64,000 nt of DNA from a virus, in IMG/VR virus record IMGVR_UViG_3300044641_004147, positions 29,347 to 93,346 of that record; one strand, 5' to 3'. The position numbers and the translations under genes were made by a program. The notes below the pieces were generated by a model. It saw only the letters and a list, made by a program, of their open reading frames with translations. It searched no databases and was not told the origin of the DNA. Positions 2,113 through 63,064 of the stretch are shown in pieces (position 1 is the stretch's first letter; each line of letters begins with the position of its first letter).

Positions 2113-3996
2113 ATGCCTACAGTAAATCTTACTACTCTTTTAGCAAGCGGCGATTTTCTCGGATACACTGGCAGTGCCGGTGCCACCCCTGCAGGGTATT
2201 ATGGCAGCACTGGCGGCGCCAGTATTGCGCCCAATCTTTATGTTGCAGGAACATTAACAGTTAATAGTTCAATTGTACCCACAGGCAACGGAACAGTCAA
2301 TCTAGGAAGCCCTTTAAACAGATTTGGCACACTATATATTTCCGCAAATACTATCGACATAGGCGGATCACAAATTACCACAACCGGAACTGGCGACATT
2401 TCTTTTTCGACAGCATCCGGTAATGTTGCATTAAACGCAAACACAGTTAGTTTCTTGAGTGGTGTTAGTGAAACTGGTGGCGCAATAGGTTTCACCGGAA
2501 GTCGCGGAGATTTAGGTTTTACTGGCAGTATAGGCTTCACGGGCAGTATTGGCATTGGTTTTACTGGTAGTCAGGGTATACCTGGCGCAGCCGCAGACAA
2601 AGGCTTTACGGGCAGTCAGGGCAACTTGGGTTATACAGGTAGTATTGGCCCGACAGGCTCGCAAGGTATTCCTGGAACAGCCGCAGCAGTTGGCTTCACT
2701 GGTAGCGCAGGAGTAGGATTTACCGGCAGTACTGGTTTTACTGGTAGTCAGGGTATTTCGGGCGCAGCCGCAGACAAAGGATTTACGGGCAGTCAGGGCA
2801 GTATTGGATTTGCTGGAAGCCAAGGTATACAAGGTGTAATTGGATTTACGGGTAGTCGCGGTGCATTTGATGCCATTGGTTTCACAGGTAGTCGGGGCGA
2901 TACAGGTTTTATAGGTAGTCACGGCAATGCTGGGTTTGTAGGCAGCACTGGTTTCACTGGTAGCACCGGGGTAGGATACACGGGAAGCGCAGGTGGCGAA
3001 TTGTTTACCACAGGTAATACCGCACCAGTGTCTCCAAAGGTTGGAGATTGGTGGTATTACACTAACGGCAATACGTTGTTGAGATATATGAATGTCGGTG
3101 CCGGTACATTTTGGATTGACATAACCGGTTCAACTCATAATTTCGGTCTAAGTGCAAACACCCAATTGGCAATTATACAATCATCAATGGTGGCACCATT
3201 GATGGAATATCTTGTGGTTGCTGGTGGTGGCGGAACTGACGGAGGCACACATGGCGGTGGTGGCGGTGCTGGCGGACTACTACAAGGATCAGTATCAATT
3301 GGAATAAATTACACTTACACTATTGTTGTTGGCGCCGGCGGAGTTAATCAATCCAATGGATCTAATAGCAGTATTTCTAGCATCAACTTTGAGAACTTGA
3401 TTGCAATTGGCGGAGGCTTTGGCGCCGGTCCGTCGAGTACAAGTGCAGGTGGCAGTGGTGGTAGTGGCGGTGGAGCAACAATGTATTTTGCTAGCTCGTT
3501 TGGTACCGGAACAGCAGGTCAAGGTAACAACGGTGGCGCAAATGGTGATTATAATAATATTACCACTGGTCGTGCTGGCGGTGGTGGTGGAGCCGGCGGC
3601 GCAGGATATGCAGGAAACGAAGCAACTACATCATTACGCGGCCAGGGCGGAATTGGCGTAGAATCGTCTATATCAGGCGTATCTACCTATTATGCCGGTG
3701 GTGGTGGCGGCGCAAGTTGGCAAGGTGCAACAACAGGATTTGCAGCCGGGGGCCTAGGTGGTGGCGGAGCCGGTGGAAGACAAAATAATGCCTTTAGTCC
3801 AACAAATGGTAGCGAAAATACTGGCGGAGGCGCAGGTGCAGAATTTGGTATTGGAAGATCTGGAGGATCTGGTATTGTTATTATACGATACCCCGATACT
3901 TACCTTATAGCCACTACTACTGGCAGTCCGACTATTACAGTGTCTGGTGGATATAGAATATACAAATTTACCAGTTCCGGAACCATAACATTTTAA
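2113..3996 (+). CDS. Collagen-like fibre with C-terminal glycine-rich (polyglycine) domain
   Basis: About 180 aa of G-[FY]-T-G-S-x repeats, an APVSPKVGDWW module and a YLVVAGGGG...GGSGIVIIRY...YRIYKFTSSGTITF Gly-rich domain. Confidence 0.75.
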   Translation: MPTVNLTTLLASGDFLGYTGSAGATPAGYYGSTGGASIAPNLYVAGTLTVNSSIVPTGNGTVNLGSPLNRFGTLYISANTIDIGGSQITTTGTGDISFSTASGNVALNANTVSFLSGVSETGGAIGFTGSRGDLGFTGSIGFTGSIGIGFTGSQGIPGAAADKGFTGSQGNLGYTGSIGPTGSQGIPGTAAAVGFTGSAGVGFTGSTGFTGSQGISGAAADKGFTGSQGSIGFAGSQGIQGVIGFTGSRGAFDAIGFTGSRGDTGFIGSHGNAGFVGSTGFTGSTGVGYTGSAGGELFTTGNTAPVSPKVGDWWYYTNGNTLLRYMNVGAGTFWIDITGSTHNFGLSANTQLAIIQSSMVAPLMEYLVVAGGGGTDGGTHGGGGGAGGLLQGSVSIGINYTYTIVVGAGGVNQSNGSNSSISSINFENLIAIGGGFGAGPSSTSAGGSGGSGGGATMYFASSFGTGTAGQGNNGGANGDYNNITTGRAGGGGGAGGAGYAGNEATTSLRGQGGIGVESSISGVSTYYAGGGGGASWQGATTGFAAGGLGGGGAGGRQNNAFSPTNGSENTGGGAGAEFGIGRSGGSGIVIIRYPDTYLIATTTGSPTITVSGGYRIYKFTSSGTITF

Positions 3997-4008
3997 GAAA
4001 AAAATATC

Positions 4009-4602
4009 ATGACATTTGTTGCTACGCCAATTGATAATCAACTTGTTACTGTTAACGGTATTGTTTATCGTTATAATTCTTCTCTGAATGCTTGGTTTAA
4101 GTATCAAATAACTTCGGCAAATGTTATCGTCACAGACACTGCTAATATTGTCTCTAATACATCAAGTACCAGTACCACAACCGGAGCATTGACAGTTGCC
4201 GGCGGTATTGGGGTACAGGGCAATATATTTGCTGGTGCAGTATATACCAATAGTTATTTTTATGCCAACGGGTCTGTATTAAGTAGAGATGTTGGTTATA
4301 CTGGCAGTGCTGGAGCGGGCTTTACTGGCAGCAGTGGTTATACCGGATCAATTGGCTATACAGGCAGCAGCGGCACAAATGGCTTTACTGGTAGTGCAGG
4401 AGCGGGCTTTACTGGCAGCGTAGGAGTAGGCTTTACCGGCAGTCAAGGTATAATTGGTTATACCGGTAGTGCAAGCAGCGGTGGCGGTGCAACATTCTTG
4501 ACAGTGGGCACAAGAACTACAGCAATAAATGTTGGTGTAGCCACAAGCAGTTCATTGAATGTTGTGGGCCGCGCTGGAAACGTAGCAGTAAACTTTACAT
4601 AA
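4009..4602 (+). CDS. Short fibre protein (MxFxxxPxxxQ N-terminal module plus GxTGS repeats)
   Basis: The N-terminus is paralogous to those of 29387 and 30776; contains a [14 protein letters not shown] module. Confidence 0.7.
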   Translation: MTFVATPIDNQLVTVNGIVYRYNSSLNAWFKYQITSANVIVTDTANIVSNTSSTSTTTGALTVAGGIGVQGNIFAGAVYTNSYFYANGSVLSRDVGYTGSAGAGFTGSSGYTGSIGYTGSSGTNGFTGSAGAGFTGSVGVGFTGSQGIIGYTGSASSGGGATFLTVGTRTTAINVGVATSSSLNVVGRAGNVAVNFT

Positions 4603-26729: not shown

Positions 26730-29374
26730 TGGCAATTCTAAGAGTTGAACCCAATATAATTAACAGTAACGGAGCCTATACCATGGACTCTGTTACTGCC
26801 AACACTGTTGTGGTCAGTGGCACTATACTGCCCACAGTTAGCAATGTAATTAATATTGGTAGCCCTACACAGCGTTTTGGTACAATTTATCTAGCTGGAA
26901 ACACCATTGACTTAGGTGGTGCACAGATTAACAGCACTGAAGGCAACATTAGTTTTGCTACTACAGCAGGTAATATTGAACTTACTTCACTGCTTATTGA
27001 CTTTTTGTCCAATGTTGCAGTACAAGGTTCGCCGGGAGCACAGGGAAATATTGGCTATACAGGCTCTTCGGGCACCGCAGGAACCGCAGGTTTTACAGGT
27101 AGTCAGGGTATACCGGGTAACCCAGGCGGATATACAGGTAGTACAGGTTTCGTAGGCAGTCAAGGCGACCCTGGCGGATATACAGGTAGTCGTGGATTTA
27201 CTGGTAGTTCTGGATCCGATGGTGCCGCAGGATCACCGGGCACAGCAGGTTTTACAGGCAGTGCCGGCCCTGCCGGCGGGTATACCGGTAGTCGAGGCAA
27301 CACTGGATTCTCTGGTAGTATTGGCAATACTGGTAGTACAGGTTTTACAGGTAGTCAGGGCATCCCTGGTGCAGCCGCAGATAAAGGATACACAGGTAGC
27401 CAAGGCGATACAGGTACTCCAGGGGCCACGGGCGGTCTAGGATACACTGGTAGTCAGGGCATTCCCGGTGAAGCTGCCGCAGTAGGATATACAGGTAGTC
27501 TAGGTTTTGTAGGCAGTGCTGGCACCACAGGAGGACTGGGATTTACTGGTAGTCAGGGTATTGCTGGTGCAGCCGCAGATAAAGGATACACAGGTAGTCA
27601 AGGCGATCTAGGTTACACTGGTAGTGTAGGATCAATTGGCGTCACCGGATTCACAGGTAGTCGGGGAGCTTTTGATGCAGTAGGATTTACTGGTAGCCAG
27701 GGCACAACTGGGTTTGTCGGTAGTCAAGGCAATTTAGGATACAGTGGTAGTAAAGGCGACACCGGCTTAGGATTTACAATTGCTAAATCATATGTTAGCG
27801 TAGCCGCACTGACAGCAGATACAAGCCCAACAAGTATCGCAGCAGGACAATTTGCCATAATTGAAACTGGCAACGTTAACGATGCCGAAAACAGTAGATT
27901 ATATTTGTGGACTGGTAGCGCATACAATTATGTAAATGACTTATCTGGTGCAATCGGTCTAACAGGTCCGCAAGGATCTACTGGCTTTGTGGGTAGTCAA
28001 GGAACTACTGGATTTGTAGGAAGCCAAGGTGGCAGTGGTTACACAGGTAGCCTAGGAGTAGCTGGTGGCATAAATTATGCAGTTACTAATTCTGGAGCCA
28101 GCAGTTATACCATTGCTGGGTCTAGCAATCCTACACTGACACTGATCAAAGGGTTTACTTACTATTTTACAGTTTCAGCTAGTGGACATCCTTTCTGGAT
28201 TAAAACAGCACAGGCCACAGGCACAGGTAGTGCTTATACTAGCGGTGTAACCAACAACGGTGTTGAGTCTGGTACAGTGACATTTACGGTACCATTTGAT
28301 GCCCCGGCTACTCTTTACTATATTTGCCAACACCATGGCTCAATGGTTGGTACGCTGAATATAGTAGAATCTATGCAGGGGTATGTAGGTAGCCAAGGCG
28401 TTGGCTACACCGGATCAAAGGGCACTGGTGCAATAACAACAGCATCTTCTGCTCCTGCTACACCCAACACTGGTGATTTGTGGTACAACACAGTACGAGA
28501 TGTTCTACTGCGATATATGAATGTGGGCACTGGGTCGTTCTGGATTGATATGTCAGGACCGGTATACAATTTTGGCATCAGTGCTGTAACTTCAACAGCT
28601 ATCTATCTTTCTGCACAAGGACCAACGGTTGAATATTTAATGGTAGCCGGTGGCGGAGGCGGTGGTGGAGGCGTATCTGCTGCATACAATTCTGGATCGG
28701 GAGGAGCCGGCGGCCTGTTAACTAGTTCTGCGGTATTTACACCTGGTACAACATATACCATTACAGTGGGTGCTGGCGGAGCAGGTGGCGCTACTGTGGC
28801 CGGTACCACTGGATCAAATACAACATTAAGTGGTTTAAACATCACAGCGTACGGCGGTGGTGGAGGCGGTGGTTCGGGCAATGGACTCAATGGTGGTTCA
28901 GGTGGGGGTGGCGGCGGCCCAGCTGGAGCCACTACAGGTGGTAAAGGTGTTTACCCTGGATCAACCTATATTGATGGACCTCGACAAGGATACGATGGTG
29001 GCAACGGACCCGGTGGTTATGGTGGCGGTGGTGGCGGTGGTGCCGGCGGAGCAGGCAGCGGCGGAACTGCAGGAATTGGAGTGTCCAGTTCTATTAGCGG
29101 AACATCAGTTGGATATGCCGGAGGTGGTGGCAGTTCGGGCTATGGTGCTGGTACCGGCAATGGCGGAGCAGCAACAAGTAATTCTGGTAGCGGTGGAGCA
29201 GCAGGATGGGCATCTCCTCAGAATGCTGGAGGTGCTGGCGGATCTGGAATTGTAATATTACGATACCTTGACACATATTCCGCACCATCACTGACCACCG
29301 GAAGCCCAACGGTTACTGTTGCCGGCGGGTATAGAATATACAAATTTACCACTAGTGGTAGTATAACATTTTAA
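26729..29374 (+). CDS. Collagen-like fibre with cupredoxin-like and Gly-rich domains (paralogue of 2113..3996)
   Basis: GxTGSx repeats including GAAADKGYTGSQG; HPF...YYICQHHGSM motif; same C-terminal Gly-rich domain as 2113. Confidence 0.8.
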   Translation: MAILRVEPNIINSNGAYTMDSVTANTVVVSGTILPTVSNVINIGSPTQRFGTIYLAGNTIDLGGAQINSTEGNISFATTAGNIELTSLLIDFLSNVAVQGSPGAQGNIGYTGSSGTAGTAGFTGSQGIPGNPGGYTGSTGFVGSQGDPGGYTGSRGFTGSSGSDGAAGSPGTAGFTGSAGPAGGYTGSRGNTGFSGSIGNTGSTGFTGSQGIPGAAADKGYTGSQGDTGTPGATGGLGYTGSQGIPGEAAAVGYTGSLGFVGSAGTTGGLGFTGSQGIAGAAADKGYTGSQGDLGYTGSVGSIGVTGFTGSRGAFDAVGFTGSQGTTGFVGSQGNLGYSGSKGDTGLGFTIAKSYVSVAALTADTSPTSIAAGQFAIIETGNVNDAENSRLYLWTGSAYNYVNDLSGAIGLTGPQGSTGFVGSQGTTGFVGSQGGSGYTGSLGVAGGINYAVTNSGASSYTIAGSSNPTLTLIKGFTYYFTVSASGHPFWIKTAQATGTGSAYTSGVTNNGVESGTVTFTVPFDAPATLYYICQHHGSMVGTLNIVESMQGYVGSQGVGYTGSKGTGAITTASSAPATPNTGDLWYNTVRDVLLRYMNVGTGSFWIDMSGPVYNFGISAVTSTAIYLSAQGPTVEYLMVAGGGGGGGGVSAAYNSGSGGAGGLLTSSAVFTPGTTYTITVGAGGAGGATVAGTTGSNTTLSGLNITAYGGGGGGGSGNGLNGGSGGGGGGPAGATTGGKGVYPGSTYIDGPRQGYDGGNGPGGYGGGGGGGAGGAGSGGTAGIGVSSSISGTSVGYAGGGGSSGYGAGTGNGGAATSNSGSGGAAGWASPQNAGGAGGSGIVILRYLDTYSAPSLTTGSPTVTVAGGYRIYKFTTSGSITF

Positions 29375-59178: not shown

Positions 59179-59772
59179 ATGAAACCATTCACACAGTACC
59201 TGTACCATACGCAGAAAACCTATGAGTTTCGTGTAAAGGTCGCCGAGGTTGAAATGAGCGAAGAAAACCTGGCAAAAATTAAAAACGCATTAGAGGCTTA
59301 TGGCGTAGAAAGCATGGGCAAGCCTAAGCGTTTACCTATACAAGAACACACAGATTTTCCTAAGATGGGTCCTTGCGAATGTCACATCATTGACATTGGC
59401 CTAAAGTACCCAACAACCACAGAGCAATTACAGCACATTGTAGCCGAAAGAGCTATGTTAGACAAAGGTTGCGTATGTGTTTATACCAAGGATCAATTTG
59501 AACAAAACATGGTCACAGAGCCAGCACCAGCAAAGAAAGGTCCTGTGCTAACAGACCCAGATTTAGAAGATCAACCCGGCGCACAAGAACTAGTCGGCCA
59601 GGCTCGAGTTGGCAGCTTTATCAAAGAGCTAATAAAAAACAAGGAAACTAAATTTGAAATAGCCGGTAAAGAAAAAGCCGACCCTACAAGTTTAGACACA
59701 TTACCCCTAGGGACCAAGAGCCCAGTTGGCAGCAGCCAAAATAAAATACCAAGCCCCGTTAAAGGAAAATAA
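59179..59772 (+). CDS. Hypothetical late protein (probably head-associated)
   Basis: MKPFTQYL N-terminus resembles T4 capsid-targeting sequences. Confidence 0.7.
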   Translation: MKPFTQYLYHTQKTYEFRVKVAEVEMSEENLAKIKNALEAYGVESMGKPKRLPIQEHTDFPKMGPCECHIIDIGLKYPTTTEQLQHIVAERAMLDKGCVCVYTKDQFEQNMVTEPAPAKKGPVLTDPDLEDQPGAQELVGQARVGSFIKELIKNKETKFEIAGKEKADPTSLDTLPLGTKSPVGSSQNKIPSPVKGK

Positions 59773-60984: not shown

Positions 60985-61941
60985 ATGAAAAAATTAGCAG
61001 ACTACTTTGTTGAATCTGAACAGGCTGTAACTGAAAAAGCAGTTAGCCAGCAACAGCAAAAATTCATGGGTATGGTTCATGCCATGCAAAAAGGCGAAAA
61101 AGTCAAGGGCGCCAGTCCTGAACTAAAAAAAGTAGCCAGTACAATGAAAAAATCAGATGCCGAAGATTTTGCTAAGACCAAACATAAAGGTCTGCCCAAA
61201 GAAGTTGGCGAAGATGCTGTTGACGACTTCTTGGCTCGGGGTGGAAAAATTCAAGTTGGTAAAACTCATAAGCCTCGCAAAGCCGAAAAGTGGCAAGGGT
61301 CATCGCATATTGGTGCAGCCGGCGGCAAAGGAACAAAAGGTAAAGTATCAGGTATGGGAGCTAATACAAATCCAAAAGGCGGAAAACCTGTGGTTACCGC
61401 AGACATACACACAGAAAGCGCAGTGATGCAAGGCGTTCGTCAAGTATCGGAAGCTAGGCTAATTGCCGAAGCTGGTGTAACTGTTGGTCACATTATTAAG
61501 AGATTCAAACACGAAGTTAAAAACTTTGTCGAAGATGGTGATCTGGACACCGACTTGTATCACGCATTATTTGACTATTATATGGACAACGGCGAAATGC
61601 CTTATGGCGTGGCCAAAGCCCGTAGCGGCGATCCATTTGAGTGGATCAGTGAGCGTTTTTATAGAGATCTTCAAGACGAAGGTCTAGTAGAAGCCGCAGA
61701 TCCTTTAGAAATTCCTGCATACCAGCGCAAGGGCAGTGCAAGATTAGGCAACTTCCCTGCGCCAGTGGCTCCAAAAGTTGATACAATTGGTAAGGCCAGA
61801 CCAGAGAATATTCCGGCTGTACAGCGCAAGGCAGCGGGACAAGATTTCCCTGTAAGTATGGATCAAGTTCAAGACACTAGCGATAAGATTAGTTCACTTG
61901 ATACACTACGCAAAATGGCAGGACTGCCTCCTCGGGTCTAA
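60985..61941 (+). CDS. Putative internal head polyprotein with DUF3008-like and other short modules
   Basis: MKKLADYFVE N-terminus; AVSQQQQKFMG...EDFAKTKHKGLP; FLARGGKIQ; GEMPYGVAKARSGDP; IPAxQRK twice; LRKMAGL. Confidence 0.65.
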   Translation: MKKLADYFVESEQAVTEKAVSQQQQKFMGMVHAMQKGEKVKGASPELKKVASTMKKSDAEDFAKTKHKGLPKEVGEDAVDDFLARGGKIQVGKTHKPRKAEKWQGSSHIGAAGGKGTKGKVSGMGANTNPKGGKPVVTADIHTESAVMQGVRQVSEARLIAEAGVTVGHIIKRFKHEVKNFVEDGDLDTDLYHALFDYYMDNGEMPYGVAKARSGDPFEWISERFYRDLQDEGLVEAADPLEIPAYQRKGSARLGNFPAPVAPKVDTIGKARPENIPAVQRKAAGQDFPVSMDQVQDTSDKISSLDTLRKMAGLPPRV

Positions 61942-61942
61942 G

Positions 61943-62305
61943 ATGAGAGCTTCCGAGTTCGTTCGTGAGGACAAAAAGCCTTTACGCAAAGCACTGGTGC
62001 AAGCGGCACCTCACTTAACAACTTACGATCAACTAGACAATAACAACAGCCCGTATCTAGCCTACAGATTTGGCGTTGCATTGGCTCCGGCACCCGATAG
62101 TATAGGCTACGCAGAAGGACCAATTGGTAGCAGATTTACCATGGTTGACTACAGTGATGCTGACACTAAAATTCGCAAAGCAGCCGAAAAGAAGATGGGC
62201 ATTAAAAGTAGTTCGGACACTGGTGCAGGGTCCAAAGAACTGCCTGGTATTAACACACAAAGCCCAATGTCTCCAAAAGGGCCAGTTAAGCCTAAGAGAA
62301 AATGA
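61943..62305 (+). CDS. Hypothetical protein (MRASEFVRE N-terminus, probable internal head protein)
   Basis: The true start is ATG 61943, 2 nt after the upstream stop. Confidence 0.65.
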   Translation: MRASEFVREDKKPLRKALVQAAPHLTTYDQLDNNNSPYLAYRFGVALAPAPDSIGYAEGPIGSRFTMVDYSDADTKIRKAAEKKMGIKSSSDTGAGSKELPGINTQSPMSPKGPVKPKRK

Positions 62306-62541
62306 GCGATCCAATCAAGGACTTACAGCACCTAGCCGGAATTAAAAAGAATCAAAGTCCGACTGCAAATCGAGATGGCGGCCTAAGTCCAATTGGTAGT
62401 AATATAAGCGTAACCGGAATGGAAAAGCGCCGGTTAGAAAAAGAACATAACATTAAACCCGGAACTGATGAATGGTTCCAATTATGGTTTAGTCGTCCTT
62501 ACCTAACCGGCGAGCCACCGGTGGGTTCTAAGCGGCATTAA
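62302..62541 (+). CDS. Small hypothetical protein with LxxLAGI motif
   Basis: ATGA overlap with the upstream gene; IKPGTDEWFQLWFSRPYLTGE C-terminus. Confidence 0.7.
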   Translation: MSDPIKDLQHLAGIKKNQSPTANRDGGLSPIGSNISVTGMEKRRLEKEHNIKPGTDEWFQLWFSRPYLTGEPPVGSKRH

Positions 62542-63064
62542 CAGCCGATTTGTCCACACCTAAATATTTGTACCACGATTCGTGCGGTACATGGAATGGA
62601 CGATTCTTCCACTGTGCAATCAGACTGTAGTAGTCTGGCTTAAACGGCATACGATGTGGCTTCCACAACTTACTGCCCTTTTTGTAATTGCAAGGCTTAC
62701 AGGCTGTCACAGAGTTTTCCCAAGTGGTTTTACCCCCAGCAGCTCTAGGAATCACATGATCCAGTGTTAATTCTTTGTTGTCAAATGTGTCATTGCAGTA
62801 AGCACAGGTATACAGGTCGCGCAAAAACACATTGGCACGACTAAACTTAACCGACTTCTTGTAGTTAAAATACTCTTTGGTCATACAGACGCTGGGTATT
62901 TCCATAGTGATGTGCTCACTACGGATTAACTTACCCGGATAAGTTTCCAAAATTTCTACGCGATCCAAAAAGTACAGTTTTACAGCGTGTTCCCATGGGA
63001 CCACACTCAACGGCAGGATTGAAATTGGATTGAAATCTGCGTTTAATAGAAGTGTTGTGCTCAT
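62528..63064 (-). CDS. HNH endonuclease (McrA/HNH_5-like)
   Basis: FSRANVFLRDLYTCAYC...LTLDHVIPRAAGGKTTWENSVTACKPCNYKKG. Confidence 0.9.
   Translation of the reverse strand: MSTTLLLNADFNPISILPLSVVPWEHAVKLYFLDRVEILETYPGKLIRSEHITMEIPSVCMTKEYFNYKKSVKFSRANVFLRDLYTCAYCNDTFDNKELTLDHVIPRAAGGKTTWENSVTACKPCNYKKGSKLWKPHRMPFKPDYYSLIAQWKNRPFHVPHESWYKYLGVDKSAVNAA

Follow-up and report, generated by a model that had tools for sequence, protein, structure and literature searches.

An open reading frame (ORF) on the plus strand of a metagenomic viral contig, P0001 (positions 60985-61941; 318 residues, translated without internal stops), probably encodes a cargo protein of the inner head (prohead core) in an uncultivated jumbo phage with a T4-like core, in which the plan of the T4 internal proteins has been extended to a string of modules. 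The stretch that we analyzed, hereafter the window, spans 64,000 nucleotides and is the final 64 kb of the 93-kb IMG/VR contig IMGVR_UViG_3300044641_004147 (its positions 29,347 to 93,346); coordinates below are those of the window unless they are given as contig positions. The cargo reading is the best explanation of five independent kinds of sequence evidence taken together with the virion proteomics of relatives. A preliminary description of this DNA had proposed a capsid-packaged precursor that is cut at prohead-protease sites into modules resembling ligands of the host machinery. Packaging and cutting of the precursor gain support in silico from an N-terminal tag, an S77-type protease, a motif shared with the scaffold protein, the genomic slot of the gene, and the exchange of modules at the predicted sites. 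The host-ligand part fares less well and is weakly supported: likenesses to SutA and to the FtsZ tail lie above those of shuffled sequences, but some key interface residues are not kept.

The sequence strings on which the preliminary description was built were all found where it had placed them (MKKLADYFVE, AVTE, AVSQQQQKFMG...KHKGLP, VGE, DAVDDFLARGGKIQ, VSE, IAE, GEMPYGVAKARSGDP, LVE, AADPLEIPAYQRK, ENIPAVQRK, and LRKMAGL). The protein opens with the tag MKKLADYFVE (60985-61014; residues 1-10), which resembles the capsid-targeting peptide of T4 and terminates in a hydrophobic-x-E (hxE) motif, and continues with a spacer, SEQAVTE (61015-61035; residues 11-17), with a second hxE site at its end. 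Module A (61036-61212; residues 18-76) is a basic, DUF3008-like unit with an isoelectric point (pI) of 9.8 and the terminus ..GLPKEVGE. Module B (61213-61404; residues 77-140) is basic and disordered, and runs from a SutA-like start, DAVDDFLARGGKIQ (61213-61254) and on to KPRKAEKWQGSS, to the terminus KPVV. A linker, TADIHTE SAVMQGVRQVSE ARLIAE (61405-61470; residues 141-162), carries tandem E-terminated sites after residues 156 and 162 and leads into module C (61471-61692; residues 163-236), a small, acidic (pI 4.6), helical domain that includes GEMPYGVAKARSGDP and ends in GLVE. The basic, disordered tail (61693-61938; residues 237-318) holds two [DEN]-[IV]-P-A-[YVF]-x-R-K motifs, in AADPLEIPAYQRK (61693-61731) and in ENIPAVQRK (61804-61830), and a C-terminal tag, LDTLRKMAGL (61897-61926), of the LxxLAG[LIM] type. 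The predicted fragments are of 6.5 kDa (pI 9.8), 7.2 kDa (pI 10.0), 8.6 kDa (pI 4.6), and 8.8 kDa (pI 9.6). An AlphaFold2 model built from 46 sequences predicts a confident small helical domain at residues 164-233 (predicted local distance difference test [pLDDT] about 87-92), helices of moderate confidence in module A (pLDDT 55-67), and disorder in module B (pLDDT below 50) and most of the tail. One confident domain with disorder elsewhere fits the picture of beads on a flexible string. This model had no match at Z 5 or above among 48,161 PDB chains, and PDB sequence searches with P0001 or its 29-residue SutA-like piece returned no usable match.

The tag provides a link to T4. As read from NC_000866, the N-terminus of T4 IPIII and IPII is MKTYQEFIAE and that of IPI is MKTFKEF. 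For the encapsidation of IPIII, its ten N-terminal residues are enough, gp21 cleaves after L/I-x-E, and among the diverse internal proteins of T-even phages the tag alone is conserved (PMC9026906, PMC3012670). P0001 and its homologues share the start pattern MK[KS][LF].[DE]Y[FIV].E, with N-termini such as MKSFKDYIAE, MKSFKDYVAE, and MKKLTDYIAE. We composed a strict regular expression on the basis of T4 IPII and IPIII, both of which it fits. It finds 47 of 118 homologues but none of 225 long control ORFs; in the hypervariable slot in which P0001 lies, it finds 9 of 64 ORFs. The low number of fitting slot ORFs shows that the tags are diverse, and the remaining ones bear variants, for example MKI.[DE][IV]I.E and MRA.EF..E. 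At the second site, which closes the spacer, E17 is invariant among 46 homologues and its P3 residue is hydrophobic in every case.

The contig also encodes a protease of the appropriate family. Upstream of the window (contig positions 889-6802) lies a head module in the T4 order: portal, a 75-residue protein, a very acidic protein, a Peptidase_S77 protease, a 364-residue scaffold protein, and the major capsid protein. The protease is of the T4 gp21 prohead type (PF03420; 86.3 bits against a cut-off of 27; match at contig positions 3916-4350, gene at 3844-4482), and its gene sits between those of the scaffold and the acidic portal-adjacent protein. Among six related contigs with a length of at least 83 kb, five likewise encode an S77 protease; shorter related contigs gave no S77 match, as is expected of 10-19% pieces. 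In the capsid protein, YLAE lies about 36 residues N-terminal of a conserved GVQPM, and T4 gp23 is cut (FLTE/AEIGG, the slash marking the cut) about 47 residues ahead of GVQPM; the N-terminus of the capsid protein bears the sites ALLE, VVLE, and YLAE, the last being close to the gp23 cut position. The ORF directly 3' of the capsid gene (contig positions 6882-7586) has histidine boxes, HRKHHRH and HNNHH, typical of membrane fatty-acid desaturases, and may be an auxiliary metabolic gene.

A second tag ties P0001 to the scaffold. The motif L-x-x-L-A-G-[LIM] has four credible occurrences on the contig: at the C-terminus of the scaffold protein (..ELKRLAGL), at the C-terminus of P0001 (LRKMAGL), inside the neighboring protein P0003 (LKLAGM), and at the N-terminus of ORF 62302 (LQHLAGI). 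In related loci, many of the large slot proteins terminate in the same motif (e.g., ILKLAGKK and LKLLAGLKK), and gp281 of Pseudomonas phage PA5oct contains it twice.

The hxE sites derive their significance from comparison with relatives, through enrichment and junctions, rather than from their count in one protein. In P0001, [LIVMF]-x-E occurs eight times, with its Glu at residues 10, 17, 76, 156, 162, 183, 223, and 236, an unremarkable number for a single sequence (P3 is hydrophobic at 8 of 21 Glu against about 4 expected). Across 60 slot proteins, hxE occurs 476 times against a composition-shuffled expectation of 314 (1.5-fold; z about 10, a value inflated by relatedness), whereas the control motifs h-x-D, h-x-x-E, hE, and [SAG]-x-E stand at 1.05, 1.01, 0.90, and 0.90, and hxE itself at 1.09 in seventeen other proteins of the window. 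The motif E-x-h is mildly enriched too (1.27-fold), which suggests that helical periodicity contributes. At the junctions, the BLAST segments of relatives cluster at residues 1-76, 72-140, and 154-229. Module A always terminates in ..GLPKKV-x-E, after which the chain goes on with module B, with any of at least six unrelated inserts, or directly with the short linker; in the homologue P0014 it is joined straight to the linker, and at the linker position other homologues show SVTE/STVLDE/. The inserts end in ..GIEE/, ..PIGE/, ..SLDE/, or ..LGE/SVTE/STVLDE/ (slashes marking predicted cuts), and [LIVM]-x-E stands directly ahead of module B in 25 of 25 proteins, unrelated DUF6321 proteins included. 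Of 90 distinct indels of 25 residues or more between homologues, 30% can be aligned so that, in one register, both ends come directly after [LIVMF]-x-E (random, 2.0 +/- 1.4%), and in 87% at least one end fits (random, 35 +/- 5%). This large-indel analysis was used in place of breakpoint counts from the ends of high-scoring segment pairs, which were noisy and only about 2-fold enriched.

The gene occupies a slot whose borders are conserved and whose content is not. An IMG/VR scan found 567 stretches encoding relatives, and we fetched 80 of these loci. About 60 share the order sheath, tube, two conserved genes, TnsA-like gene, p58644, p59179, variable region, p62302, antisense HNH, and TerL; one clade differs in having the module gene about 3 kb beyond TerL. 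The variable region measures about 1 to 7 kb and holds a differing set of tagged, Lys/Glu/Asp-rich ORFs at each locus. Its upstream boundary in the window is p59179 (59179-59772, plus strand; phrog_14802), which encodes a conserved virion structural protein homologous to PA5oct gp282 (E 9e-13). Both gp282 and gp281, the latter being the slot occupant in PA5oct, are annotated as found in virions by electrospray ionization tandem mass spectrometry. The downstream boundary is p62302 (62302-62541, plus strand), a small gene with the N-terminal LQHLAGI that is kept in most related loci just ahead of the HNH gene and TerL. Throughout the clade, members of the p62302 family combine an N-terminal LxxLAGI with a C-terminal W-F-S-x-P-Y-L-T-G-E. 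The antisense HNH endonuclease gene (62528-63064, minus strand) lies just ahead of TerL and occupies the same place in most related IMG/VR loci, a conservation of position that marks it as an old resident and not a recent homing insertion.

Within the slot, P0001 is flanked by gaps of 2 nt and 1 nt, so that the genes form one tight unit. P0003 (59774-60982, plus strand), a Lys/Glu/Asp-rich modular protein of 402 residues with 13 hxE sites, has its stop 2 nt ahead of the P0001 ATG, and its modules are fused to modules A and C in the homologues P0052 and P0065. One such block, ..YANEPDE..GxDLHKEK..GDNPMA, is found fused in this way in both; P0003 also contains an internal duplicate, TTWTD..GKKHP..QV.G, at about residues 44-62 and 185-203. 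ORF 61943 (61943-62305, plus strand) has its ATG 1 nt past the P0001 stop and a tag-like start, MRASEFVRE; its counterparts at related loci start with MRAREFIAE, MRAHEFVKE, and MKSREFITE, and it had no match in PHROGs. The slots at L022:11464, L025:12655, L072:11942, and L078:6072 contain ORFs that begin like signal peptides or lipoproteins (MKTWISIVLLAASSSAFA, MKKLFAVLLLVPGLAFAQ), which do not match the cargo pattern.

The contig is estimated to be 26% complete, which implies a phage genome of about 350 kb, and its terminase and TnsA-like gene are distant kin of those of PA5oct, Agrobacterium phage Atu_ph07, and the Rak2-like coliphages. A search of 5.8 billion proteins yielded 668 relatives of P0001 with strongly modular coverage. 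Within genome collections, relatives come only from metagenome-assembled genome bins; the phyla of these bins are unrelated, a sign that the phage DNA was mis-binned, and they give no clue to the host. Module A aligns with nearly the whole Pfam profile of DUF3008 (PF11450; positions 1-56 of 57) at 19 bits and E 1.6e-3, so that the likeness noticed in the preliminary description extends over the full profile, but in P0001 its score stays below the gathering threshold of 24 bits; many homologues bear precomputed PF11450 matches, and in PHROGs the module matches phrog_30268 (E 4e-19). As a small stand-alone gene, it is found in 159 cyanophage records by tblastn. One stand-alone DUF3008 protein, the 69-residue gp279 of cyanophage S-SCSM1, carries the annotation of a virion protein; mass spectrometry has identified 45 virion proteins of this phage (PMC9602691). 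Our literature search found no mention of DUF3008. Module C likewise exists as stand-alone viral proteins of 74-92 residues in the ESM Atlas, where it falls in unnamed viral clusters only, and it occurs in many other architectures. Searched singly against PHROGs, modules B and C and the tail had no match. That the units are small and conserved and carry short linear motifs suggests roles in binding, be it to DNA, the phage core, or host proteins.

From these features, we infer the following course for P0001, from packaging and cleavage to retention and ejection. The protein would be translated from a tightly packed late operon between the tail/neck genes and the terminase; the T4 late promoter TATAAATA is absent near the P0001 cluster. 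The MKKLADYFVE tag, and probably also the C-terminal LxxLAG helix shared with the scaffold, would dock it in the scaffolding core before the shell closes. The gp21-type serine protease would then cut after Glu at hydrophobic-x-E, removing the tag and very likely freeing four units, namely, the DUF3008-like one, the disordered one with the SutA-like start, the acidic helical one, and the tail with its IPAxxRK motifs. Those pieces that are basic would be retained with the DNA and exit with it at infection, by analogy with the T4 internal proteins.

Several observations weigh against this account. The strict tag pattern fits few slot ORFs, and PA5oct gp281, the occupant with virion evidence, shows no homology to P0001 or P0003 detectable by BLASTP beyond LxxLAG. 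Full-length homologues of P0001 are all metagenomic, with none in isolate phages. The junction statistics count related proteins, in which events are not fully independent. Module B ends in ..KPVV[TS]AE or ..TADIHTE, with a polar P3 that departs from L/I-x-E; some indels in the tail lack any hxE; and two hxE sites, after residues 183 and 223, fall within the folded module C. The idea that homologues gain or lose modules exactly at xE boundaries holds for the indels with both ends at such sites, far above the random share, but not for the polar-P3 boundaries or the site-free tail indels.

A wider conjecture can be built on the cargo reading, though we regard it as somewhat unlikely: uncultivated jumbo phages with a T4 core may possess a cargo cassette in which small autonomous modules such as DUF3008, module B, the GEMPYG domain, and DUF6321 are recombined at protease sites, within the one hypervariable slot, into capsid-tagged polyproteins. 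A single gene would thereby give rise to several injected peptides, some of them acting by short linear motifs modeled on host ligands such as the RNA-polymerase contact of SutA. No description of such polyproteins was found in our literature search. If true, this would represent a polyprotein strategy of effector delivery in a double-stranded DNA phage.

The machinery of the head itself offers another explanation, which we consider unlikely. P0001 and its neighbors might be minor core components, comparable to gp67, gp68, and gp22 of T4, that help to build or size the very large head and are then cut into small pieces and mostly expelled ahead of DNA entry, with their modules binding phage parts (shell, portal, or scaffold) and not host targets. 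The LxxLAG motif common to P0001 and the scaffold protein would be natural in such an accessory, as would the tandem sites in the linker and predicted fragments of only 6-9 kDa, and the T4 core proteins are indeed cut many times and their peptides expelled (PMC9026906). However, core assembly proteins are normally conserved, whereas the slot is hypervariable in both content and length. The modules, moreover, also exist as stand-alone small phage proteins and within unrelated proteins, and a stand-alone DUF3008 protein is present in mature S-SCSM1 virions. Three of the four predicted fragments are basic (pI 9.6-10), as are the DNA-bound internal proteins of T4, which again favors retained cargo over an expelled core component.

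The preliminary description went further and saw in the modules mimics of host ligands. In this explanation, injected module B would sit on the protrusion of the RNA polymerase beta subunit, and the IPAxxRK motifs would enter the pocket of FtsA, ZipA, MinC, or ClpX, blocking division. We judge this to be quite improbable, even though the likenesses themselves are not trivial and T4 Alt provides a precedent for an injected cargo acting on RNA polymerase (PMC9026906). The best Pfam match of module B is SutA-RBD (PF20661; E 1.4e-3 for P0001 itself), which is the top match in 17 of 20 module-B proteins, always at profile positions 11-26 of 35 and at sub-threshold scores of 18-20 bits. A module-B profile run against 177,635 PDB sequences ranks SutA first (7f0r_G; E 0.032), with an alignment from ..AMEEFLSRGGKVQ.. 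to ..PPKKPDSKYGS, and a clean module-B hidden Markov model (HMM) gives SutA 16.7 bits, far above the maximum of 10.5 bits in 2000 shuffles. Like SutA of Pseudomonas aeruginosa (PF20661; 7F0R), module B carries A-[VM]-x-[DE]-F-L-[AS]-R-G-G-K-[IV]-Q followed by P-[RK]-K-x-[DE]-x-x-x-G-S, and both proteins are largely disordered.

The SutA likeness is nevertheless partial. It spans about 30 residues, or about half of the RNA-polymerase-binding region, and even the best score, 20.2 bits (E 3.7e-4), lies below the gathering threshold of 29.3 bits. The SutA binding domain comprises residues 57-90, with the interface residues K60, R64, L67, M71, F74, L75, G78, G79, V81, and I84 (PMC9300723). Module B retains F74, L75, G78, and G79 and has residues of like kind at M71 and V81 (V and I), which makes six of the ten; the other four, K60, R64, L67, and I84, fall before the module start or are Gly. 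Module B has no counterpart of the wedge loop, of the acidic N-terminal domain that SutA needs for activity, or of the N-terminal half of the SutA binding helix, and, unlike SutA, it continues with a Gly/Lys-rich stretch of 40 residues. It begins at a predicted cut site right ahead of DAVDDF, and each architecture has a different sequence upstream of it. When 1.84 billion representatives were searched by profile, 150 module-B clusters were recovered, none of them a SutA-like partial match, which would cover the first third; nearly all span essentially the whole module, and two only its later part. A search for short module-B relatives found 3 proteins, none of them SutA. SutA is, besides, confined to Alteromonadales and Pseudomonadales (PMC9300723), to which nothing links these phages. 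Module B (67 residues) can lie anywhere within proteins of 95-1442 residues, in 150 clusters at 50% identity (e.g., P0083, P0120, and P0139-P0282), and often adjoins DUF6321, typically as ..GVAE/D..KPVV[TS]AE/... Many of the proteins that contain it start with MKINDF.., MKAKEFIP.., or MKTTDFIKE. Thus, of the SutA claim, a shared short segment stands, which is possibly homologous, and membership in the family does not; RNA polymerase is a weak candidate for the target of module B.

The tail motifs show a comparable mixture. Their consensus from 71 unique copies, P-x-[DEN]-[IV]-P-A-[VYF]-x-R-K, shares the [DE]-I-P-A-[FY]-x-R-K core of the FtsZ C-terminal peptide (the E. coli terminus is DYLDIPAFLRKQAD), and in both proteins the region around this core is disordered and basic. 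With the motif HMM, the FtsZ tail obtains 15.5 bits, whereas none of 5000 shuffles exceeds 9.5 bits. In a six-frame background of 1.65 M residues taken from our loci, all matches above 13 bits are family members, one unidentified match falls in the 10-12-bit bin, and the rest lie below 8 bits; extrapolation from the lower bins gives an estimate of about 0.04 chance matches at the FtsZ-tail level per proteome-sized search. FtsZ I374 and L378 are of critical importance for ZipA, FtsA, and MinC, and L378E abolishes SlmA binding (PMC4117426). Of the 71 motifs, 69 have I or V at the I374 position, but the hydrophobic residue at the L378 position is not kept: Q occurs there 39 times, K 9, R 7, A 7, H 5, M 2, and L once, so that 67 of 71 copies are polar or have A. 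Unlike the FtsZ peptide, moreover, the phage motif occurs twice, is internal in both copies and so has no free C-terminus, and bears conserved AAGKDFP or xxxRLG extensions foreign to FtsZ. The polar L378 position and the internal placement make simple FtsZ mimicry unlikely; what remains of that claim is a likeness above background.

Finally, that P0001 acts as one uncut multidomain chain, in the virion or not, with hxE reflecting a linker or helix-cap preference or a trace of recombination, is very doubtful: the case for cleavage is read from sequence, E-x-h is itself enriched, and several boundaries lack a hydrophobic P3, but the enrichment is specific to h-x-E over h-x-D, h-x-x-E, and hE and over the control proteins, unrelated inserts terminate in the same motif, the motif agrees with what is known of the specificity of the contig-encoded protease family, and tandem redundant sites are known from giant-phage propeptides (PMC9026906).

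The T4 internal proteins are the textbook case of phage proteins injected with DNA, IPI being an antirestriction factor, yet they are few, single domained, and known mainly from coliphages. If the cargo reading is true, a large clade of environmental giant phages packages strings of interchangeable mini-modules by means of a T4-style tag and protease, and the protease site doubles as an evolutionary joint for swapping modules. Many short orphan phage domains, such as DUF3008, DUF6321, and the GEMPYG domain, would then be explained as head cargo. The combination of tag, hxE joints, and LxxLAG would furnish a sequence rule for spotting injected phage effectors in metagenomes, as well as natural parts for loading foreign proteins into phage heads.

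Among known systems, the core proteins gp22, gp67, and gp68 of T4 resemble P0001 as predicted here in that several L/I-x-E cuts divide them into small peptides; their genes lie beside that of the protease, and the contig has counterparts. In contrast to these conserved, acidic proteins, whose fragments mostly leave the head, P0001 is mostly basic and lies in a separate, hypervariable slot. The inner-body and ejection proteins of phiKZ, 201phi2-1, and SPN3US, which are processed by gp175- or gp245-type proteases, offer a parallel to the predicted cleavage after Glu in a three-residue motif, with redundant propeptide sites. These phages cut many of their head proteins, and they package and eject protein in large amounts (PMC9026906, PMC10052503). 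However, their motif is S/A-x-E, the proteins form large paralogous families, and cleavage mostly removes propeptides; the shuffling of small modules at the sites is undescribed there, and the lineage of P0001 has a T4-like core and is kin of PA5oct and Atu_ph07. The closest comparison remains with IPI, IPII, IPIII, and Alt of T4, which have a 10-residue tag of the same pattern with a hydrophobic-x-E end, a gp21-family protease in the genome, and small basic products, here predicted. In both cases, too, the gene content varies highly between related phages, and the locus lies among the morphogenesis genes of a phage with a T4 core. P0001 differs in having the second tag, LxxLAG, in common with the scaffold. 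Above all, whereas the T4 proteins are single domained and cut once, or at both ends in Alt, the P0001 chain joins four or more unrelated modules with sites between them and is rearranged by swaps at those sites.

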